From the IMG/VR virus record IMGVR_UViG_3300012352_000310, positions 1 through 64,000 of that record: 64,000 nt of DNA, one strand, 5' to 3'. The translations under genes and the position numbers were made by a program. Numbering within the stretch: position 1 is the first letter of the stretch; each line of letters opens with the position of its first letter. The DNA comes from a virus (Duplodnaviria > Heunggongvirae > Uroviricota > Caudoviricetes). This document shows positions 1 through 6,519 of this stretch, in pieces. The notes beneath the pieces are model-generated. The model was given only the letters and a program-made list of their open reading frames with translations. It was not told the origin of the DNA and did no database searches.

Positions 1-52
1 CCGGAACTGGCAGATTAAAAGTCTGCTGTGATAACCATTTCACTATACTCCC
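1..52 (-). tRNA. tRNA 5' portion truncated by window edge (anticodon UUU, Lys-like)
   Basis: reverse complement gives acceptor, D-arm GTGA/TCAC, anticodon loop CUUUUAA; T-arm lies outside window. Confidence 0.35.
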
Positions 53-56
53 GTAG

Positions 57-133
57 TGGTCCCTCACCTCGGATTCGAACCGAGACCTCGATGATTAAGA
101 GTCATGTACGCTAACCGTTAACGCCAATGAGGG
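57..133 (-). tRNA. tRNA-Lys(CUU)-like
   Basis: rc cloverleaf: acceptor CCCTCAT/GTGAGGG, T-loop TTCGAAT, anticodon loop CUCUUAA, encoded CCA. Confidence 0.55.
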
Positions 134-597
134 AAGTTGTTCGTAATTACTTTTGTCTTTTACGTGCCAACCGGGACCAATACGGGATCCAAGTTGACAC
201 TAACGTTTACCACGTTTCATGTCAATCTCCATTTGAGTAAAATTAAAATAACAGGATAGCTTTTTTGCGTTTTTCAATTACAAGTTGAGTGCTTTTTAGT
301 TGCTGCAACTATCCTAGATGAGAACAGGATCCGCTTTCTTTTCAAGATATAGGTTGAAATTTTTAATTTGCGGTAAGGATCCTAAGAATTTAATTTGTAA
401 GTAGTTGCACCATCATTATAGCAACCATTCACCCGTGTAACAAGCTCGAGCGGGACTCGGTACGTCACTTGGGATTCATCCAGTCATGCAACCATTTTGC
501 CTTTAGTGGGATTCGAACCCATGACCTTCTACTGACCAGCACCTTCGAAGAATGCTGACCAGCGTGATTTCACTTGCTGACACTTACAAAACTTGAT

Positions 598-677
598 TGT
601 GTGTTGCAGGATTCGAACCTACATCCGGAGGTTTTACCCTCATGTAATGATGCCCTAAACATTTATACTAAACACAC
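598..677 (-). tRNA. aberrant tRNA-like element (perfect 7-bp acceptor + canonical T-arm, non-canonical central domain)
   Basis: acceptor GTGTGTT/AACACAC and GTAGG-TTCGAAT-CCTGC T-arm; no standard D/anticodon arms; no encoded CCA. Confidence 0.3.
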
Positions 678-683
678 AAAACT

Positions 684-759
684 TGGTGCGGGCTACAGGG
701 TTCGAACCTGCGACCTGAACGTTGGCAACGTTCCGCTCTACCAGCTGAGCTAAGCACGC
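684..759 (-). tRNA. tRNA-Gly(GCC)
   Basis: rc: D-arm GCTCAGCTGGTAGAGC, anticodon stem GAACG/CGTTC loop UUGCCAA, T-loop TTCGAAC, CCA encoded. Confidence 0.8.
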
Positions 760-766
760 ATTAAAT

Positions 767-841
767 TGGCGGCCTCAAGGGGTAACGATCCCCTTCTTTA
801 GCAGTGACAGTGCTACGTGCGTCCATGAACACTTTGAGGCC
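767..841 (-). tRNA. tRNA-Asp(GUC)
   Basis: rc: anticodon stem TAGCA/TGCTA loop CUGUCAC; acceptor GGCCTCA/TGAGGCC; CCA encoded. Confidence 0.75.
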
Positions 842-941
842 AAAATTTCTGAGTCGTACTTAATTACACGGCATATACGCCCGTCCGTGATGTTACGGTT
901 GCAAACTTACCTGCAGGACGCGATTGCAACTATCTTACATT

Positions 942-1016
942 TGGCGACTCGTGGGAGAATCGAACTCCCATCTACGGATAGACAATCCGCGATAATAGCC
1001 ATTATATGAACGAGCC
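942..1016 (-). tRNA. tRNA with GUC anticodon (second Asp-like copy, U37 unusual)
   Basis: rc: acceptor GGCTCGT/ACGAGTC, T-arm GGGAG..CTCCC, anticodon loop UUGUCUA. Confidence 0.5.
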
Positions 1017-1144
1017 ATGAATATGTGGCATTACGAACTTTAGCCGTACTTCTAACGCGAGTACCGAAAAGATCTACTGTGTGCAGACCCGAACAACACG
1101 CCTAGACCTTTTCTAGGATTGACAGCAACTGACGTTGCCGAACT

Positions 1145-1222
<78 letters not shown>

Positions 1223-1233
1223 AATAAGATAAA

Positions 1234-1319
1234 TGGTGGAGACGACTGGAGTCGAACCAGTAGTGCCATAAGGCGGCGGATTTACAGTCCACTGGGGTTA
1301 CCAATTTTCCTACATCTCC
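1234..1319 (-). tRNA. tRNA-Tyr(GUA), class II
   Basis: rc: anticodon stem GTGGA/TCCGC loop CUGUAAA, long variable arm, 86 nt, CCA encoded. Confidence 0.75.
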
Positions 1320-1327
1320 AAATTCTT

Positions 1328-1402
1328 TGGTAGCCAGTGGTGGTCTCGAACCACCGACCCACGCCTTATCAAGACGTTGCTCTACCCCTGAGCTAACTGG
1401 CC
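1328..1402 (-). tRNA. tRNA-Ile(GAU)
   Basis: rc: GCTCAGGGGTAGAGC D-arm, anticodon stem ACGTC/GGCGT loop UUGAUAA. Confidence 0.8.
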
Positions 1403-1408
1403 ATTTCT

Positions 1409-1501
1409 ACCATATTAAAACGCACTATCTACAGTTAAGACATGTGGGAAGTCTTCACTTGATAGTTCGTCACACCACCGACGCTTAAGCGTTTTAATAT
1501 G
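1409..1501 (-). ncRNA. structured spacer element (14-bp inverted repeat CCATATTAAAACGC/GCGTTTTAATATGG enclosing nested hairpins); possible small stable RNA
   Basis: perfect long-range inverted repeat with internal stems AAGAC/GTCTT and ACTATC/GATAGT, between two tRNAs. Confidence 0.3.
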
Positions 1502-1575
1502 GTACACCTAGAGGGAATCGAACCCTACGTTTCCGCCTTGAAAGGGCAGCGTCCTAACCGTTAGACGATAGGTGC
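1500..1575 (-). tRNA. tRNA-Glu(UUC)
   Basis: rc: D-arm GTCT..GGAC, anticodon stem CTGCC/GGCGG loop CUUUCAA, CCA encoded. Confidence 0.8.
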
Positions 1576-1576
1576 A

Positions 1577-1603
1577 AAGAAAAACTTTCGAATTTTTAAA
1601 GAG
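1577..1603. repeat. near-palindromic motif AAAGAAAAACTTTCGAATTTTTAAAGA (copy 1 of 2)
   Basis: same 27-nt element recurs at 5200-5226; each sits just upstream (minus-strand sense) of a tRNA sub-array and downstream of early promoters. Confidence 0.7.
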
Positions 1604-1629
1604 CTTTTGCTTTTCAGCAACTGAAGATG

Positions 1630-1661
1630 TATTATACACCATCAGCTAATTTATGTACAAC
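1630..1661 (-). promoter_or_regulatory. early sigma70-like promoter (consensus module) reading into tRNA sub-array 1
   Basis: plus ATTATAC..N..TGTACA = minus TTGTACA-N17-TGnTATAAT. Confidence 0.6.
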
Positions 1662-1666
1662 ACTTT

Positions 1667-1870
1667 TTACAGTGTATCGACTGTGCCCATCACGCCGCGA
1701 GTTCCACGACGAAAGTTGCTTACGCCTTGAGCCCAAGCAGTGTAGCGAGACTTATCAACTGAGAAAGTCTTTTCTAACTTCTTCGGCATGCGAGGAGCGC
1801 ACATCGTAACTTTGACACCATCAACGATGGTAACAACATCTGAGTACTTAGACTTACGTGCCATAATCAA
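1667..1870 (-). CDS. hypothetical small protein
   Basis: 67-aa ORF immediately downstream of consensus promoter 1897-1928 and conserved leader. Confidence 0.4.
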   Translation of the reverse strand: MIMARKSKYSDVVTIVDGVKVTMCAPRMPKKLEKTFSVDKSRYTAWAQGVSNFRRGTRGVMGTVDTL

Positions 1871-1896
1871 ACTCCTTGTTTATCAATCTATGGAGT

Positions 1897-1928
1897 AATT
1901 ATACAACACTTTTGATTATTTGTACACA
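1897..1928 (-). promoter_or_regulatory. early promoter module
   Basis: ATTATACAACACTTTTGATTATTTGTACA consensus. Confidence 0.6.
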
Positions 1929-1974
1929 GGTCTACGAAAAATTTTTCGTGTATCAGAAAGTGTACAGTTTTGAG

Positions 1975-2051
1975 TGGCGCGCCCGGAGGGATTCGAACCC
2001 CCGACATGCGGTGTAGAAGACCGCTGTTCTATCCAACTGAACTACAGGCGC
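1975..2051 (-). tRNA. tRNA-Arg(UCU)
   Basis: rc: GTTCAGTTGGATAGAAC D-arm, anticodon stem GCGGT/ACCGC loop CUUCUAC, CCA encoded. Confidence 0.8.
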
Positions 2052-2057
2052 ATATTC

Positions 2058-2297
2058 TTATCGTCTCTTAACCCAGCTATACTCTACACCATCTGGGCAC
2101 TTTCCATCTTTGATAGAATCAACTCCAGACTTTCCTATAGAGTTTGGATTTTCACTAACCATTGTCACAAAAGACATTCCTAACTTACGAAAGCCTTCTG
2201 CATAACGCAGCGCTTCGTCTAGAATTTCTAATTCATGACCATGAGAGACTCCAGTTACTGGATCAGTGTAGTACACTTTAAACATAAAAACTTTCAA
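2058..2297 (-). CDS. hypothetical protein embedded in tRNA array
   Basis: 79-aa minus ORF filling the gap between tRNA-Arg and tRNA-Leu. Confidence 0.3.
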   Translation of the reverse strand: MKVFMFKVYYTDPVTGVSHGHELEILDEALRYAEGFRKLGMSFVTMVSENPNSIGKSGVDSIKDGKCPDGVEYSWVKRR

Positions 2298-2299
2298 TT

Positions 2300-2384
2300 T
2301 GGTGCTCGAGGCCGGAATCGAACCGGCACGCCCGAAGGCGGCAGATTTTAAGTCTGCTGTGGCTACCGATTACACCACTCGAGC
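2300..2384 (-). tRNA. tRNA-Leu(UAA), class II
   Basis: rc: anticodon stem GCAGA/TCTGC loop CUUAAAA, variable arm GCCTTCGGGCGT, acceptor GCTCGAG, CCA. Confidence 0.8.
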
Positions 2385-2492
2385 ATAATAAATCAGGTTA
2401 CCGTGTTGCACCCTTTGTGCACGCTGCCGAGTTTTGGTGGCAATGTAAGGAATCGAACCTTAGAATTTGTTTGCTGAATGTAACCTATAACT

Positions 2493-2567
2493 TGGTGGTC
2501 GGTACTGGGATCGAACCAGTGACCTTCACAATGTCAATGTGATATTCTACCGCTGAAATAACCGACC
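2493..2567 (-). tRNA. tRNA-Val(GAC)
   Basis: rc: anticodon stem TCACA/TGTGA loop UUGACAU; acceptor GGTCGGT/ACCGACC. Confidence 0.65.
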
Positions 2568-2687
2568 ATATTGAAATACTCTCTCGACGTCAGGGGTCTT
2601 TTCATCGCGCTGGCTAAGCTGCTTCGTCATGTAGTCCCGGTTTGCCAACCGCTTAAGGCTAATGACCAATGATGAGAATACTTCAAT
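2567..2687 (-). ncRNA. structured spacer element (16-bp inverted repeat ATATTGAAATACTCTC/GAGAATACTTCAATAT); possible small stable RNA
   Basis: long-range perfect IR enclosing ~90 nt between two tRNAs; analogous to 1409-1501 element. Confidence 0.3.
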
Positions 2688-2688
2688 A

Positions 2689-2763
2689 TGGTACCTCGTG
2701 ACAGTTTCGAACTGCCGACCCTCTCCGTGTAAAGGAGACGCTCTACCACTGAGCTAACGAGGC
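2689..2763 (-). tRNA. tRNA-Val(UAC)
   Basis: rc: GCTCAGTGGTAGAGC D-arm, anticodon stem TCTCC/GGAGA loop UUUACAC. Confidence 0.8.
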
Positions 2764-2782
2764 ATAATGAAAACAGGATCGT

Positions 2783-2855
2783 TTTCTTGGACGGGATTTG
2801 AACCCGCTACAGTTTCCTTATGAGGGAAATGCTCTACCTATGAGCTACCATGATG
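2783..2855 (-). tRNA. tRNA-like with CAU anticodon, imperfect acceptor (possible pseudogene)
   Basis: rc: GCTCATAGGTAGAGC D-arm, TTTCC/GGAAA stem loop CUCAUAA, T-arm GCGGG..CCCGT; acceptor 5/7 pairs, no CCA. Confidence 0.4.
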
Positions 2856-2881
2856 GTTTTTGCTGAACCGATCCTAAAACT

Positions 2882-2956
2882 TGGGGAGTCGTACGAGAAT
2901 CGAACTCGTGATAGCGGAATCACAACCCGCGGTTTTGCCACTAAACTAACAACTCC
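2882..2956 (-). tRNA. tRNA-His(GUG)
   Basis: rc: anticodon loop UUGUGAU; extra G-1 pairing with C73 (His hallmark); CCA encoded. Confidence 0.85.
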
Positions 2957-2964
2957 ATAAAACT

Positions 2965-3048
2965 TGGTGCCCCAGGAGAGACTCGAACTCTCACGCCTTT
3001 CGGCACTGGCTTCTAAGACCAGCGTGTCTACCATTCCACCACCAGGGC
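2965..3048 (-). tRNA. tRNA-Leu(UAG), class II
   Basis: rc: anticodon stem CTGGT/GCCAG loop CUUAGAA, variable arm TGCCGAAAGGCGTG. Confidence 0.8.
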
Positions 3049-3091
3049 ATATGTGTTATTATACACAAATTCTTTATTTTTGTAAATCAAT

Positions 3092-3169
3092 TGGAAGCTA
3101 GGGTCGGATTTGAACCGACGGTTTTACGGATTTGCAATCCGTTGCATTGGGCCGCTCTGCCACCTAGCC
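3092..3169 (-). tRNA. tRNA-Cys(GCA)
   Basis: rc: anticodon stem ACGGA/TCCGT loop UUGCAAA; 3-bp D-stem. Confidence 0.75.
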
Positions 3170-3176
3170 ATAGAAT

Positions 3177-3253
3177 TGGTGCTCAGGGAGGGACTCGAAC
3201 CCTCAGGATCTTGATTTTGAGTCAAGCACGTCTACCAATTGCGTCACCTGAGC
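3177..3253 (-). tRNA. tRNA with CAA anticodon on a Trp-like class I body
   Basis: rc: D-loop CAATTGGTAGA and T-loop GTTCGAGTC as in bacterial tRNA-Trp; perfect anticodon stem CTTGA/TCAAG, loop CUCAAAA. Confidence 0.65.
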
Positions 3254-3255
3254 TT

Positions 3256-3346
3256 TGGCAGTGAGTGAGAGATTCGAACTCTCGTGCCGGCATAACCGAC
3301 CATCACCTTTCCAAGGTGCGCCAATAGGCCACTCTGGCAACTCACT
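3256..3346 (-). tRNA. tRNA-Ser(GGA), class II
   Basis: rc: anticodon loop UUGGAAA, long variable arm, 91 nt, CCA encoded. Confidence 0.75.
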
Positions 3347-3352
3347 ATATCT

Positions 3353-3428
3353 TGGTGCCGAAGACTGGATTTGAACCAGTGACACACGGATTTTCAATCC
3401 GCTGCTCTACCAACTGAGCTACATCGGC
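3353..3428 (-). tRNA. tRNA-Phe(GAA)
   Basis: rc: GCTCAGTTGGTAGAGC D-arm, anticodon stem GCGGA/TCCGT loop UUGAAAA. Confidence 0.8.
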
Positions 3429-3436
3429 ATAAATTC

Positions 3437-3526
3437 TGGCGGTGCGACTGAGACTCGAACTCAGAAACCGGCTTTCACCGATCGACGGATTAGCAATCCG
3501 CTCCAATACCATTATGGGACCGCACC
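3437..3526 (-). tRNA. tRNA-Ser(GCU), class II
   Basis: rc: anticodon stem GCGGA/TCCGT loop UUGCUAA, long variable arm. Confidence 0.8.
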
Positions 3527-3536
3527 ATTACTAAAC

Positions 3537-3628
3537 TGGTACCTCGGCCGAGAGTCGAACTCGGATGAACCAATTATCTGTTGCTTACGGGATATAAATC
3601 CGCCGTTTTACCATTAAACTACCGAGGT
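3537..3628 (-). tRNA. class II tRNA with ambiguous anticodon loop UUUAUAU (UAU?)
   Basis: perfect acceptor ACCTCGG/CCGAGGT and T-arm; anticodon stem GCGG/CCGT with A.C closing mismatch; 92 nt. Confidence 0.45.
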
Positions 3629-3649
3629 GTTAATGTAAACTAAAAATTT

Positions 3650-3724
3650 TGGTGGACCGACGGGGAATCGAACCCCGACCCGAGGCTTGCAAAGCCACTG
3701 TGCTCCCGTTATCACTATCAGCCC
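3650..3724 (-). tRNA. tRNA-Ala(UGC)
   Basis: rc: anticodon loop UUUGCAA; acceptor GGGCTGA/TCGGTCC with G3.U70 wobble (Ala identity). Confidence 0.75.
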
Positions 3725-3737
3725 AAAACTTAAAACT

Positions 3738-3815
3738 TGGTCTCCACGGTTGGACTCGAACCAACAGCCTCCTGACTCCAGATCAGGCCGTCTACCAGAT
3801 TGACATTACGCAGAG
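3738..3815 (-). tRNA. tRNA-Pro(UGG)
   Basis: rc: anticodon stem CCTGA/TCAGG loop UCUGGAG. Confidence 0.65.
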
Positions 3816-3823
3816 ATGAAACT

Positions 3824-3899
3824 TGGTGCCGCCCACTAGAATCGAACTAGTTCCTGTGGATTTTCAGTCCACCGTACACACCAGTTATACGAGAGCGGC
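3824..3899 (-). tRNA. tRNA with GAA anticodon (second Phe-like copy)
   Basis: rc: anticodon stem GTGGA/TCCAC loop CUGAAAA; acceptor GCCGCTC/GGGCGGC. Confidence 0.55.
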
Positions 3900-3907
3900 T
3901 ATAAAAT

Positions 3908-3986
3908 TGGCTCCGGATGTGGGGATCGAACCCACCTAACCATTGATTAACAGTCAAGCCCATGCACCTTGCTCGGGTTTTCCGGA
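3908..3986 (-). tRNA. tRNA-Asn(GUU)
   Basis: rc: anticodon loop CUGUUAA; D-stem CCCG/TGGG. Confidence 0.65.
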
Positions 3987-3996
3987 ATAGAAATTA

Positions 3997-4067
3997 GGCC
4001 CTCGTGGATGGATTTGAACCACCGACCACTGCGCGCTTGTTGCTCTCCCAGACTGAGCTACACGAGG
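3997..4067 (-). tRNA. tRNA-like with perfect acceptor and D-arm but collapsed anticodon arm (pseudogene?)
   Basis: acceptor CCTCGTG/CACGAGG, GCTC..GAGC D-arm, T-arm present; only 18 nt between D- and T-arms; CCA not encoded. Confidence 0.3.
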
Positions 4068-4074
4068 ATTGAAT

Positions 4075-4148
4075 TGGTGCCCCATGACAGAATCGAACTG
4101 CCGTAACCTGATTACAAAACAGGTGTAATACCATTATACTAATAGGGC
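4075..4148 (-). tRNA. tRNA-Thr(UGU)
   Basis: rc: anticodon loop UUUGUAA; acceptor GCCCTAT/ATGGGGC. Confidence 0.7.
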
Positions 4149-4153
4149 AAATT

Positions 4154-4227
4154 TGGTAGCCTGTAGAGGTTACGATCCTCTGTCGCTCGATTATCAGTCG
4201 AGTGCTCTACCATTGAGCTAACGGGCT
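4154..4227 (-). tRNA. tRNA-Ile(GAU), second copy
   Basis: rc: GCTCAATGGTAGAGC, anticodon stem CTCGA/TCGAG loop CUGAUAA. Confidence 0.7.
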
Positions 4228-4304
4228 ATTATAAAACAGGATGCTTTTTGTCGCTAGACAACCAAAAGTTTAGCTTTGAGTTTTGCTGTAGTCATCCTAA
4301 AACT

Positions 4305-4379
4305 TGGTATCGCATACGGGTAACGATCCCGTCTAGTCAGCTTGAAAGGCTGATGACCTCACCTGAAGTCGAATGCGAT
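4305..4379 (-). tRNA. tRNA-Glu(UUC), second copy
   Basis: rc: anticodon stem TCAGC/GCTGA loop CUUUCAA; acceptor ATCGCAT/ATGCGAT. Confidence 0.7.
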
Positions 4380-4673
4380 ATTGAAATTGGTGGAGATGGT
4401 GGGATTCGAACCGCACACAAGAACTTTTACAGAGTTAGAGCTATAGGGTTGCAGAACTTATCCTTGTCAGGATAATTTTTTTGCTATGCTATGCTACCAT
4501 TACATCACATCTCCAAAATCTTTCTAAAGCACATCTACCAGAATTGAACTGGTGACCGGAAGGCACTGCACATCCAGCTATGATCCACATAAGAGCCTAG
4601 CCTCAGCTCCGATATGCTTTAGAAAAATGACTGACAATTTATCTCATTGTACGCCATCAGTCAAGGCGATTCT

Positions 4674-4757
4674 TGGTGGAGTGAGTAGGGATCGAACCTA
4701 CCTGCCGTGAGGCCACCGGGTTACAGCCGGCTAGAACACCATTGTTCCATTCACTCC
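4674..4757 (-). tRNA. tRNA-Tyr(GUA), class II, second copy
   Basis: rc: anticodon stem GCCGG/CCGGT loop CUGUAAC, long variable arm. Confidence 0.65.
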
Positions 4758-4762
4758 ATGTT

Positions 4763-4854
4763 TGGCGGAGAGCAGAGGAGTCGAACCCCATCCCATTTCT
4801 GAGAACCTGGTTTTCAAGGCCAGTCGCAGGACCATCCCCGCTGCATTACTCTCC
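4763..4854 (-). tRNA. tRNA-Ser(UGA), class II
   Basis: rc: anticodon loop CUUGAAA, long variable arm, 92 nt. Confidence 0.7.
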
Positions 4855-4860
4855 ATGTCT

Positions 4861-4937
4861 TGGCGCGCCCCACAGGATTCGAACCTGCATACCCCAACTT
4901 CGTAGGATGGTACATTCTCCAGTTATGCTAAAGACGC
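4861..4937 (-). tRNA. tRNA-Arg(ACG)
   Basis: rc: anticodon stem CCATC/GTTGG loop CUACGAA; acceptor GCGTCTT/GGGGCGC with wobbles. Confidence 0.7.
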
Positions 4938-4947
4938 GTAAATTTGT

Positions 4948-5025
4948 TGGCAGAGGTAACTGGATTCGAACCAGTGATCACGATTTCAAAGACCGTTGCT
5001 TTAGGCCAGACTAAGCTATACCCCA
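4948..5025 (-). tRNA. tRNA-Gln(UUG)
   Basis: rc: D-arm GCTT..AAGC, anticodon stem ACGGT/ATCGT loop CUUUGAA. Confidence 0.65.
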
Positions 5026-5199
5026 ACAATATTAAAACAAACACCAGTCCCGAGGATTCGAACCTCTTTCTCTAGTAGTTTACCACGACGTTTACAGTCA
5101 GGCAAGTGTTTGCTTTAATATAGCCCCTAGCAAGCAGTGAACCAGTACAAAGACCAGCGCTTACTTGCTAGGTGCCATCAACTAGACTTTCGTCTAGTT

Positions 5200-5226
5200 A
5201 AGAAAAACTTTCGAATTTTTAAAGAT
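5200..5226. repeat. near-palindromic motif AAGAAAAACTTTCGAATTTTTAAAGAT (copy 2 of 2)
   Basis: matches 1577-1603; preceded by 8-bp hairpin AACTAGAC-TTTC-GTCTAGTT. Confidence 0.7.
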
Positions 5227-5252
5227 CAGTGGAAGTTTCCTTCCTAAGGAGC

Positions 5253-5284
5253 TATTATACAACAGCTACTAATTTTTGTACACA
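5253..5284 (-). promoter_or_regulatory. early promoter module (1 of 3 in tandem) reading into tRNA sub-array 2
   Basis: ATTATACAACAGCTACTAATTTTTGTACA. Confidence 0.6.
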
Positions 5285-5342
5285 GGTGGAGAAAAATAAA
5301 TTTCATCAACATCTGCGATCAGGTTGTTTCCTGATCAGAAGT

Positions 5343-5376
5343 TGTATTGTAACACAACTTCGATTTATTGTACATA
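5343..5376 (-). promoter_or_regulatory. early promoter module (2 of 3; -10 TACAAT variant)
   Basis: TGTATTGTAACACAACTTCGATTTATTGTACA. Confidence 0.5.
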
Positions 5377-5431
5377 GGCTTCGAAAAATTTTTTCTCTAC
5401 CTACTCAGCTTTGGTTTCCCTAACTGAAGAT

Positions 5432-5464
5432 GTATTGTACATCATCAGCGATTTATTGTACACA
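5432..5464 (-). promoter_or_regulatory. early promoter module (3 of 3; -10 TACAAT variant)
   Basis: GTATTGTACATCATCAGCGATTTATTGTACA. Confidence 0.5.
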
Positions 5465-5466
5465 CC

Positions 5467-5500
5467 TAAAGCAAAAGCCCCTAGATTTTCATCTTAGGGG
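5467..5500. terminator. bidirectional rho-independent terminator
   Basis: 8-bp GC-rich hairpin AGCCCCTA..TAGGGGCT flanked by T-runs on both strands. Confidence 0.6.
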
Positions 5501-5733
5501 CTTTTTGAATTCTTTTGGATTACTTACTTAAGCGTATCCACTTCCTTCTTCAAGCCCCTTACGATCCCACTCAGGTGAAAATACGCGGGCATATGCCTGG
5601 CAGCTAATATTGCCGTGCATTGTCGCTTTTCTCGAGGTGGATAAGAGTATTGAAGTCATGATAGTTTTCATTGTTGGTAAAGTATTTATATCACTCTACT
5701 GCTCTCGCAGCATCTTTTCGAACTTTTTTCGAA

Positions 5734-6066
5734 TTATTTTGTGTAGTCAATCTTGCGGATCAACTTGTCGCCCATCCAATAAGAAGTAGATTCATATCGA
5801 TCTGCTTTCAACGCAACGAGCATCTTATCGAACTCTTCTTTAGTGATCTCACGGCCGTCAAGGATCGTCTCACCAAGATAGCGTTGTGTCACTTCATCAA
5901 AGTAGTCTTCTCCTAGACCAGACTCGCGCATTGTTACTTCATCATATGCGTGATCAAGGCTCTCAGCTTCAATCACAAACTTATGACGAAACTGTACGAG
6001 TGTGTCAACAACAAATAGCGGCATATCAATATCCTTCCATGTCTTTATCCATTGTGCTAACACCAT
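5734..6066 (-). CDS. hypothetical protein
   Basis: 110-aa minus ORF. Confidence 0.5.
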   Translation of the reverse strand: MVLAQWIKTWKDIDMPLFVVDTLVQFRHKFVIEAESLDHAYDEVTMRESGLGEDYFDEVTQRYLGETILDGREITKEEFDKMLVALKADRYESTSYWMGDKLIRKIDYTK

Positions 6067-6126
6067 AGATCACTAAAGCGATTATGGTTAGCGCAACACC
6101 AATTAGAATTCCAGTTAGAGTACACA

Positions 6127-6519
6127 TTATCTTTTCACCAATCTTAAAATTTGAACATCACCACTTGGCACCATAAAACATCTTGCACGAATAGTTGTAA
6201 TACCACTCACAACATCTTTTTGTTGTGTGAACTCGATAGAACTAGACTTTAGAAGACCTTCAGCCAGATCTTGTGCTAGAAGCTTTTTAACTTCATCTTT
6301 TGGAAGAGTGCACAGGTACGGATCATCCATCTTAACTGAAGCCAAGAGCATCTGACCTTTGATGATATGGTCGTATGTAGGTGGAGCAGAAGCATCAGCT
6401 GCAAAGTCACTTGCGCTGAAACCATTGTAGCCCGCCGAGATAGGCATAATGCTAGCAAGCTTAGAATCATAAGCTTGCGCATAGATCTTCATTAAGTTGT
6501 CTAGTGAGTCTGGATCCAT
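6127..6519 (-). CDS. hypothetical protein
   Basis: 130-aa minus ORF ending where ligase gene starts. Confidence 0.5.
   Translation of the reverse strand: MDPDSLDNLMKIYAQAYDSKLASIMPISAGYNGFSASDFAADASAPPTYDHIIKGQMLLASVKMDDPYLCTLPKDEVKKLLAQDLAEGLLKSSSIEFTQQKDVVSGITTIRARCFMVPSGDVQILRLVKR

Follow-up and report, generated by a model that had tools for sequence, protein, structure and literature searches.

Reviews describe tRNA-Leu as having a long variable arm everywhere but in animal mitochondria (PMC9976931). We found two mentions of short forms outside mitochondria. In Streptomyces coelicolor, a type I tRNA-Leu(CAA) is leucylated by the organism's own leucyl-tRNA synthetase (LeuRS), and its U8-A14 pair matters (PMC6614811). 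A short-loop tRNA-Leu(UAG) in a Mycobacterium tRNA cluster has been noted in one sentence (Behra et al. 2019, PMC6582537). Apart from these two mentions, we found no paper on a short-armed tRNA-Leu family of phages in the literature. Here we analyze a tRNA gene at 3177–3253 in the first 64,000 nucleotides (nt) of the IMG/VR virus record IMGVR_UViG_3300012352_000310 (Caudoviricetes). This whole stretch is referred to as the window, and the gene as the window tRNA. A sequence-only reading had taken it for a tRNA-Trp-like body carrying a CAA anticodon. Our analysis indicates that it is very probably a short-variable-loop (type I) tRNA-Leu(CAA), which would be charged by the host LeuRS and read UUG.

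ARAGORN calls the gene as a 77-nt tRNA on the minus strand with the anticodon CAA, and the Rfam tRNA model matches the same positions with 60.5 bits (E = 1.3e-11). From 5' to 3', the RNA reads GCUCAGG UG ACGC AAUUGGUAG ACGU G CUUGA CUCAAAA UCAAG, and continues after the anticodon arm with AUCCU GAGGG UUCGAGU CCCUC CCUGAGC A CCA. Its parts are located in Table 1. The D loop consists of A14, A15, U16, U17, G18, G19, U20, A20a and G21. Much of the earlier description holds. The tRNA is intact and class I-shaped (ARAGORN, Rfam, fold), the quoted D-loop and T-loop strings CAAUUGGUAGA and GUUCGAGUC are all found in the sequence, and the class I variable loop, AUCCU, has 5 nt. The anticodon loop is CUCAAAA as claimed, on the minus strand, which the claim had left unstated, and the anticodon stem CUUGA/UCAAG is perfectly paired over 5 bp. 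The minimum-free-energy z-score of the single sequence is -1.39 and unremarkable, as is usual for tRNAs. Reading of UGA or UAG by suppression through an alternative loop register was considered and rejected, since no alternative 5-bp stem exists.

In E. coli, the identity elements for leucine are A73, U8-A14, the A15-U48 Levitt pair, G18G19 and A20a, together with U54-A58 and the elbow contacts of G18/G19 with U55/C56; neither the anticodon nor the long arm is among them (PMC9976931; PMC6614811). The long arm is a hallmark of tRNA-Leu yet no identity element in E. coli, and E. coli tRNA-Leu variants without it are still LeuRS substrates (PMC9976931). Read from the sequence, every E. coli Leu identity base is present in the window tRNA. 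The discriminator is A73 (A at 3180), as in 17 of 17 long-armed reference Leu tRNAs. The T loop GGGUUCGAGUCCC supplies U54, U55, C56 and A58, and the anticodon belongs to the Leu set (NAG or YAA). At base level the Leu core is also there, with U8-A14, A15-U48, G18G19, A20a and a D stem of 3 bp; the bases for the A15-U48 Levitt pair would allow this tertiary contact. What had been called a Trp-like body therefore carries, in its D arm, U48 and A73, the signature of bacterial tRNA-Leu. The amino acid had been held unclear, but the Leu identity set is complete and the body is tied to Leu anticodons apart from one His, as detailed below. The long variable arm of class II shape is absent, and a 5-nt loop takes its place.

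Covariance models agree with this assignment. Model R1 was built from 17 long-armed Leu tRNAs with no short members, and model R2 from 9 Trp sequences. The window tRNA reaches 72.8 bits with R1 despite the absent arm, being aligned with a 10-position deletion. The two long-armed Leu tRNAs of the window, which are training members, score 93.4 and 91.2 bits, and the best non-Leu tRNA, a Tyr tRNA, scores 55.9 bits. The custom models favour Leu over Trp by about 15 bits. The sequence-only reading had allowed for an unambiguous canonical tRNA-Leu under such models; the Leu assignment emerged, but the canonical class II form did not, as the long arm is missing. Among 300 tRNAs from the window and 80 ligase-selected relatives, the identity of the window tRNA to Leu tRNAs has a maximum of 0.84 and a mean of 0.70, with the long-armed ones at 0.66–0.74.

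The anticodon loop fits the same picture. It had been regarded as an altered CUCCAAA; instead, CUCAAAA is a normal tRNA-Leu(CAA) loop, and E. coli leuX has UUCAAAA. The order C32 U33 C34 A35 A36 A37 A38 fits the rules of MiaA (i6A37) and TrmL (Cm34). TrmL, which modifies C34 of tRNA-Leu(CAA), ignores the variable arm, and an arm-deleted E. coli tRNA-Leu(CAA) is still its substrate (PMC4615657).

Compared with the class II tRNA-Leu of E. coli (leuX, CAA; leuV, CAG), the window tRNA has the same G1-C72, U8 G9, 3-bp D stem, A73 and D loop AAUUGGUAGA, and leuX also shows the YUCAAAA anticodon loop. Over the 77 positions, the window tRNA has an identity of 0.75 with leuX and 0.71 with leuV. On the other hand, the variable loop has 5 nt rather than 13–17 nt, A10-U25 stands in place of G10-C25, and five positions differ from the D arm of leuV (three stem pairs and position 13). 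The type I tRNA-Leu(CAA) of S. coelicolor resembles the window tRNA in its CAA anticodon, its 5-nt variable loop and its coexistence with long-armed Leu isoacceptors (PMC6614811). Its loop, however, is ACAGC with C48, whereas the window family has R-U-N-Y-U with an invariant U48. In S. coelicolor A73 is no identity element and a special leucine-specific domain of LeuRS is needed (PMC6614811); the window family, in contrast, has the full E. coli-type identity set, and its hosts include E. coli K-12. Because no Streptomyces genome matched the family pattern in a scan of 185,579 species, the two are probably independent lineages. Animal mitochondrial tRNA-Leu (type I) likewise lacks the long arm and has A73 (PMC6614811), but mitochondrial tRNAs have degenerate D- and T-loop cores and their own LeuRS, whereas the window tRNA keeps the full bacterial core. 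The short tRNA-Leu genes of cultured phages (LPCS28 caa, JSF10, X1, TrudiRoth and 4MG) have the same 77-nt architecture and D-arm motif, and the short form in the Mycobacterium tRNA cluster belongs with them. Identity of the window tRNA to the short tRNA-Leu of cultured phages and mobile clusters is only 74–78%, and the window phage has no close cultured relative.

The body of the window tRNA recurs in more than 200 phage, mobile-array and bacterial tRNAs. A sensitive blastn search of the 77 nt against 50,697 phage records found 27 records, several of them matching over the full 77 nt without gaps. Of those with an annotation, nearly all are tRNA-Leu and two are tRNA-Gln; none of the matches in these phage records is annotated as tRNA-Trp. 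With a UAG-type member as query, a second blastn search found 79 cultured-phage records. The examples fetched from Vibrio phage 1.208.B, Xanthomonas phage X1, Cronobacter phage LPCS28, Stenotrophomonas phage DLP_6 and Vibrio phage JSF10 share the D-arm motif GUGAYGSAAUUGGYAKACGU, the 5-nt variable loop and A73-CCA, with the anticodons UAG, CAG, CAA and UAA. In the E. coli K-12 phages TrudiRoth and 4MG, which are among the 79 records of the second search, 77-nt tRNA-Leu(UAG) genes were read directly. The motif is present in the window tRNA as GUGACGCAAUUGGUAGACGU, and its 77-nt cloverleaf has the R-U-N-Y-U48 variable loop of the family in the form AUCCU. A near-identity BLAST of the tRNA region against cultured phages returned only short matches to other tRNAs and no relative, and in E. 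coli genomes the sole match was weak, 25 nt long and in the D arm of a tRNA-Leu. The phage copies already go by the name tRNA-Leu in genome annotations, the family is little discussed, and the window tRNA is an ordinary member of it.

A scan of IMG/VR for the D-arm motif gave at least 119 stretches. There are 107 tRNAs among the matches listed, and 105 of these carry Leu anticodons (UAG 67, CAA 21, UAA 10, CAG 4 and AAG 3), 92 on short-armed and 13 on long-armed tRNAs. None of the 107 has a CCA anticodon. The other two are one genuine tRNA-His and a 96-nt sequence that ARAGORN calls His (AUG). Among these listed matches, the short body carries only Leu anticodons but for one short tRNA-His, found in the IMG/VR contig L100.

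Aligning 62 unique 77-nt short members revealed strong constraint outside the search motif. U33, A35, A37, U48, G53, U55, C56, A58, C61, A73 and the encoded CCA are invariant (62/62), U54 occurs in 61 of the 62, and the variable loop follows R-U-N-Y-U. In the cloverleaf, 99.0% of the cells are standard pairs, and changes on both sides are seen in 16 of 20 pairs. The acceptor pairs are 97.9% paired with compensatory changes in 5 of 7, and the T-arm pairs are 100% paired with such changes in 4 of 5. As controls, none of 500 shuffles matched the pairing values of the family, and sliding the 3' partners lowered pairing to 35–49%. Given the pairing, the compensatory changes and the invariant positions, we conclude that the short form is maintained by selection and is neither a decaying copy nor a sequencing slip. 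The earlier remark that the tRNA is not a degenerate copy is in line with this conservation. A sequencing error at position 35, which it had considered, is excluded by the invariant A35 in all 62 members, 15 of which have CAA.

In cells, the short-form pattern was scanned in one genome each of 185,579 bacterial and archaeal species, which gave 70 stretches. All 70 carry Leu anticodons (CAG 26, CAA 19, UAG 12, UAA 8, GAG 4 and AAG 1). The Tumebacillus avium chromosome (NZ_CP021434.1) has three CAA short forms in ordinary multi-tRNA operons (L213, L223 and L275), and one short form lies in a small cluster of Variovorax. The short-armed tRNA-Leu appears to serve some bacteria as a housekeeping tRNA, and in these natural systems the cell's own LeuRS has to accept it.

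The codon read by this tRNA is also informative. TTG makes up 17% of the Leu codons and 1.3% of all 14,351 codons in the open reading frames (ORFs) of the window. At 92 TTG positions (1,135 cells), homologues have L in 63%, I in 16%, V in 5%, F in 5%, M in 3% and W in 0.2%. This residue profile is indistinguishable from that of CTN codons, so UUG is a leucine codon in this phage. As a control, TGG positions have W in 75% in homologues. The suggestion that the tRNA could read UUG (Leu) agrees both with its CAA anticodon and with the behavior of UUG in the window ORFs. Together with the UAA and UAG isoacceptors of the same array, it covers all six Leu codons. An efficient UUG reader carrying Trp would be harmful in this phage.

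On the basis of these observations, we propose how the window tRNA may function. The gene lies 7 nt from a tRNA-Cys gene and 2 nt from a tRNA-Ser gene, and because of this spacing in the array it is probably co-transcribed with its dense neighbors and processed. Host tRNA-processing enzymes would cut it out, host LeuRS would charge it with leucine via A73 and the conserved core, and host MiaA and TrmL may add i6A37 and Cm34. The charged tRNA would then decode UUG alongside the phage tRNA-Leu(UAA) and tRNA-Leu(UAG).

Several points weigh against this proposal. The type I tRNA-Leu(CAA) of S. coelicolor was reported not to be leucylated by E. coli LeuRS (Fan et al. 2019, PMC6614811). Leucylation of the window tRNA and its family by LeuRS is predicted from an identity set of the E. 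coli type. The covariance models are built on few sequences (17 and 9), and the training set of R1 includes the two long-armed Leu tRNAs of the window itself. Both scans, that of viral contigs and that of genomes, were selected on the D-arm motif, so that only positions outside it count as independent evidence. Nor is this motif absolutely Leu-specific, as the tRNA-His(GUG) of L100 carries it.

How the arm was lost is a related question. An 87-nt long-armed Leu(CAA) tRNA in L017 shares the D loop of the window tRNA and has an identical anticodon arm, which suggests that the short form may have arisen by arm deletion. A nearest-neighbor comparison of 147 short and 80 long Leu tRNAs addressed a single origin against repeated arm deletion. 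For 104 of the 147 short ones, a short tRNA of different anticodon is a closer match than any long tRNA. The nearest neighbors of the window tRNA itself are about equal (short UAG 0.85, short CAA 0.83 and long CAA 0.83).

One alternative holds that the short arm is the very point of the gene: its loss would be adaptive and repeatedly selected, giving a tRNA still chargeable by the LeuRS of many hosts yet invisible to defence toxins (nucleotidyltransferases of the MenT or AbiEii type) or nucleases that recognize class II tRNAs through the long arm, or else one portable between hosts without the risk of recognition by seryl- or tyrosyl-tRNA synthetase (SerRS, TyrRS). MenT3 anchors on the long variable loop and no longer modifies tRNAs from which this loop is deleted (PMC11541572). 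AbiEii, a toxin of abortive infection, seems to favor long-armed class II tRNAs (bioRxiv 10.64898/2026.01.19.700257), and phage tRNAs are established counter-defence tools in the literature. The short form is also abundant in viral contigs and mobile arrays compared with just 70 finds in the 185,579 species genomes, and 11 of 24 Leu tRNAs in the ligase-selected relatives are short. However, in the hosts in question no toxin is known that targets tRNA-Leu via the arm, and MenT3 favors tRNA-Ser over tRNA-Leu (PMC11541572). This phage also retains long arms on two Leu tRNAs and on Ser and Tyr tRNAs, the short form appears to be a housekeeping tRNA in some bacteria, and neutral loss of a dispensable arm fits the data equally well. 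We therefore regard the adaptive explanation as unlikely. If it were true, arm loss would be a counter-defence by structure, different in kind from the changes in the anticodon loop that have been described to date.

Much less probable still is that the gene is dead or decaying, a non-functional long-armed tRNA-Leu minus its arm. The L017 tRNA makes a deletion origin plausible, and the array does hold degenerate tRNA-like elements. Against this, the short form is conserved in at least 147 unique sequences from many phage families and bacteria, its cloverleaf is 99% paired with abundant compensatory changes, and there is no variation in the 5-nt loop pattern, U48, A73 or the encoded CCA. In Tumebacillus avium it even occurs in three chromosomal tRNA operons.

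We give slightly less credit to charging with another amino acid, for example Phe, which would cause deliberate mistranslation or recoding of UUG. The window tRNA has A35, A36 and A73 in common with tRNA-Phe (anticodon GAA), and naturally mismatched tRNAs are known elsewhere, as in the nev-tRNAs of nematodes. Nevertheless, the same body carries NAG anticodons, which phenylalanyl-tRNA synthetase (PheRS) cannot read; UUG positions behave as Leu codons, with F at 5%, similar to CTN; and the phage has two ordinary tRNA-Phe(GAA) genes with a different body.

The resemblance to tRNA-Trp noted in the sequence-only reading is real at the level of short strings. E. coli trpT is of class I shape, has both CAAUUGGUAGA and GUUCGAGUC, and shares the CUCNAAA loop. 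These strings are not specific, and the body is not Trp-like: AAUUGGUAGAC is also the D loop of E. coli leuV, and the flanking C and GA, which are D-stem bases in the 4-bp stem of trpT, are unpaired beside the 3-bp stem of the window tRNA, as in tRNA-Leu. In trpT, moreover, the bases are G73, A1-U72 and A9, the anticodon is CCA, and the identity to the window tRNA, 0.65, is at background level. Among the 300 tRNAs compared, the maximum identity to Trp tRNAs is 0.64, equal to that to Phe, Lys and Ala. Bacterial Trp identity depends on G73 and C34 C35 A36, plus A1-U72 in E. coli (PMC9976931), and 9 of 9 reference Trp tRNAs have G73. Checking the window tRNA against these rules, as the sequence-only reading had suggested, showed that G73, C35 and A1-U72 are absent (A73, A35 in the CAA anticodon and G1-C72 instead) and all E. 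coli Leu elements present. Model R2 ranks it top in the window with 58.0 bits, just 2.3 bits over a tRNA-Arg (55.7 bits; a tRNA-Ala has 50.5), and this score falls within the non-Trp spread. About 32 of 40 independent Trp(CCA) tRNAs in viral loci score 68–86 bits, and the rest 55–64. That the window tRNA is a tRNA-Trp body with its CCA anticodon altered to CAA, charged by tryptophanyl-tRNA synthetase (TrpRS) or ambiguously and inserting Trp or another residue at UUG, is the least credible reading and can be set aside: the major determinants and the fourth D-stem pair are missing, the same body bears UAG, CAG, UAA, AAG and GAG anticodons but never CCA, W occupies 0.2% of TTG positions, relatives with a short tRNA-Leu (found via the neighboring ligase) also have a tRNA-Trp(CCA) of its own, which shows G73 and another body, and the lack of a tRNA-Trp within the in-window part of the array means little because the window edge cuts the array.

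For the window, identification as a short-armed tRNA-Leu removes a false lead, as there is neither an identity switch nor a recoding of UUG. Beyond the window, the range of the short-variable-loop tRNA-Leu extends past animal mitochondria and a single Streptomyces species, to which current reviews restrict it (PMC9976931). Phage arrays, including those of E. coli K-12 phages, commonly hold one sequence family, which also occurs in mobile arrays of bacteria and in the housekeeping operons of a few lineages, for example Tumebacillus. The E. coli phages TrudiRoth and 4MG are easy systems for asking whether LeuRS accepts such tRNAs and whether arm loss protects them.

Table 1. Positions of the tRNA array, the window tRNA with its parts, and related tRNA loci
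Feature	Position	Strand	Basis or remark
Phage tRNA array, at least 30 genes, all on the minus strand, crossing the left window edge	1..5025	-	ARAGORN, Rfam
Long-armed tRNA-Leu(UAA), 85 nt	2300..2384	-	same array
Long-armed tRNA-Leu(UAG), 84 nt	2965..3048	-	same array
tRNA-Leu(CAA) gene, encoded CCA, 5-nt variable loop	3177..3253	-	ARAGORN; Rfam 60.5 bits; 72.8 bits with covariance model R1 (class II Leu)
Acceptor stem, 5' strand (G1-G7), partner 3181-3187	3247..3253	-	fold; family covariation
D arm, tRNA-Leu type: A10-U25, C11-G24, G12-C23; C13/A22 unpaired	3228..3244	-	sequence read; family motif GUGAYGSAAUUGGYAKACGU
Anticodon arm CUUGA-CUCAAAA-UCAAG	3210..3226	-	ARAGORN, sequence, fold; five Watson-Crick pairs
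Anticodon C34 A35 A36, followed by A37 and A38	3219-3217	-	MiaA motif A36A37A38
Variable loop A44 U45 C46 C47 U48 (5 nt)	3205..3209	-	replaces the usual 13-17-nt arm
T arm GAGGG-UUCGAGU-CCCUC (G53, U54, U55, C56, A58, C61)	3188..3204	-	sequence, fold
Acceptor 3' strand (3181-3187), discriminator A73 (3180), encoded CCA (3177-3179)	3177..3187	-	sequence
Long-armed UAU tRNA loci	L010, L011, L012, L018, L020, L039, L042, L043, L051, L057, L058, L067, L087		
Long-armed UAU tRNA loci, continued	L095, L096, L098, L114, L131, L139, L143, L146, L151, L171, L217, L227		

Further loci of the short-armed family differ in their settings. Other cellular short forms are found in Effusibacillus (L209, L222 and L274) and Lutispora (L254 and L267), and a CAG short form occurs in Lutispora and in many metagenome-assembled genomes (MAGs) of Clostridiaceae. 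In Leptolyngbya sp. (L276) and Achromobacter anxifer (L266), the short forms lie in arrays of 31–32 tRNAs of the mobile L-array type. The former holds three short-armed Leu tRNAs (CAA, UAG and UAA), and the latter two short tRNA-Leu(CAG) adjoining a long-armed Leu(GAG). These two arrays link the phage arrays with bacterial tRNA arrays. A 48-kb contig of an 'uncultured Aquiluna sp.' MAG (L217) carries a short tRNA-Leu(UAG) together with the long-armed UAU tRNA that typifies the phage clade. This contig is probably of phage origin, placed in the bin of a freshwater actinobacterium, and may hint at the host range of the clade.

Meanwhile, some viral contigs contain unusual relatives. The tRNA-His(GUG) of L100 (minus strand, about 2561–2636) has 76 nt, G-1, C73, a Leu-type D arm GUGACGGAAUUGGUAGACGU and the variable loop AUUUU, which suggests a short tRNA-Leu body converted to His identity. 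Nine IMG/VR contigs (L016, L019, L025, L029, L044, L047, L050, L085 and L091) share a near-identical element, in which a tRNA-Leu-like 5' half GGAGAAGUGACGGAAUUGGUAGACGU is followed by UAAUCAAGAUGUGAGGUGCAAAAUUCCAGG. ARAGORN calls no tRNA for this element in the nine contigs. It could be a tRNA with a large intron, an RNA resembling transfer-messenger RNA (tmRNA) or a split tRNA. L011, L022 and L078 hold sequences that resemble tRNA-Leu genes with an interruption of the anticodon loop, of the kind that group I introns make.

The genome around the array is of phage type, with a DNA ligase, a ribonucleotide reductase, a nicotinamide phosphoribosyltransferase and methyltransferases among the other window proteins. 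The ligase is at most 43% identical to those of cultured phages, none of which is close, and is shared by many IMG/VR contigs at 55–67% identity. Position 1 cuts a tRNA with a CUUUUAA loop (UUU, Lys) at 1–52. The array duplicates Asp, Phe, Glu, Tyr, Ile(GAU), Met and Val with quite different bodies, and looks as if two tRNA sets had merged. No tRNA-Trp was found in the part of the array inside the window, and no Trp anticodon loop in 1–6500. Likewise, no canonical tRNA-Asn was called in the window array; related contigs carry both Trp and Asn.

Four minus-strand elements of the array depart from an ordinary cloverleaf. At 3911–3986, ARAGORN makes no call for a tRNA-like element with an acceptor stem, the T arm GGUGGGUUCGAUCCCCAC, a UUGA-CUGUUAA-UCAA arm (GUU, Asn) and an aberrant D region; this may be the missing tRNA-Asn in a non-canonical form. 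The element at 3999–4067 has good acceptor, D and T arms, with about 18 nt in place of the anticodon arm. Its scores are 33.8 bits under the Trp model and 15.9 under the Leu model. It receives no ARAGORN or Rfam call, and could be a degenerate tRNA or an element without an anticodon arm. At 598–677, an 80-nt element with an odd D region scores 35.8 bits with the Rfam tRNA model and is not called by ARAGORN; it shows no clear anticodon loop and no CCA. ARAGORN's second tRNA-Met(CAU), at 2783–2854, is sound in its D, anticodon and T arms but has a mismatched acceptor stem and, unlike its neighbors, no encoded CCA. It may be decaying, or its ends may be mis-set.

Finally, a neighboring tRNA of 92 nt at 3537–3628 on the minus strand carries a UAU anticodon for AUA codons, along with A73-CCA and a long extra arm. 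A short arm is the norm for Ile tRNAs, and the major tRNA-Ile has the anticodon GAU. Of the 35 UAU tRNAs in all fetched loci, 32 are long-armed, with 90–99 nt (Table 1). The 26 unique UAU tRNAs analyzed all have a variable-arm hairpin with a 3–5-bp stem, in 12 covarying stem variants, and A73-CCA. The stem closes a 7-nt loop, Y-A-G-A-U-N-R (CAGAUUA, CAGAUAA and others), which displays GAU; the anticodon loop of the window's own tRNA-Ile(GAU) is UUGAUAA. At AUA positions of the window ORFs, 58% of the homologue cells are Ile. We speculate that the arm may mimic the tRNA-Ile anticodon stem-loop and permit charging by isoleucyl-tRNA synthetase (IleRS) without lysidine. The literature searched gave no account of an extra-armed UAU tRNA from phages or tRNA arrays, and this tRNA looks more unusual than the short-armed tRNA-Leu(CAA).

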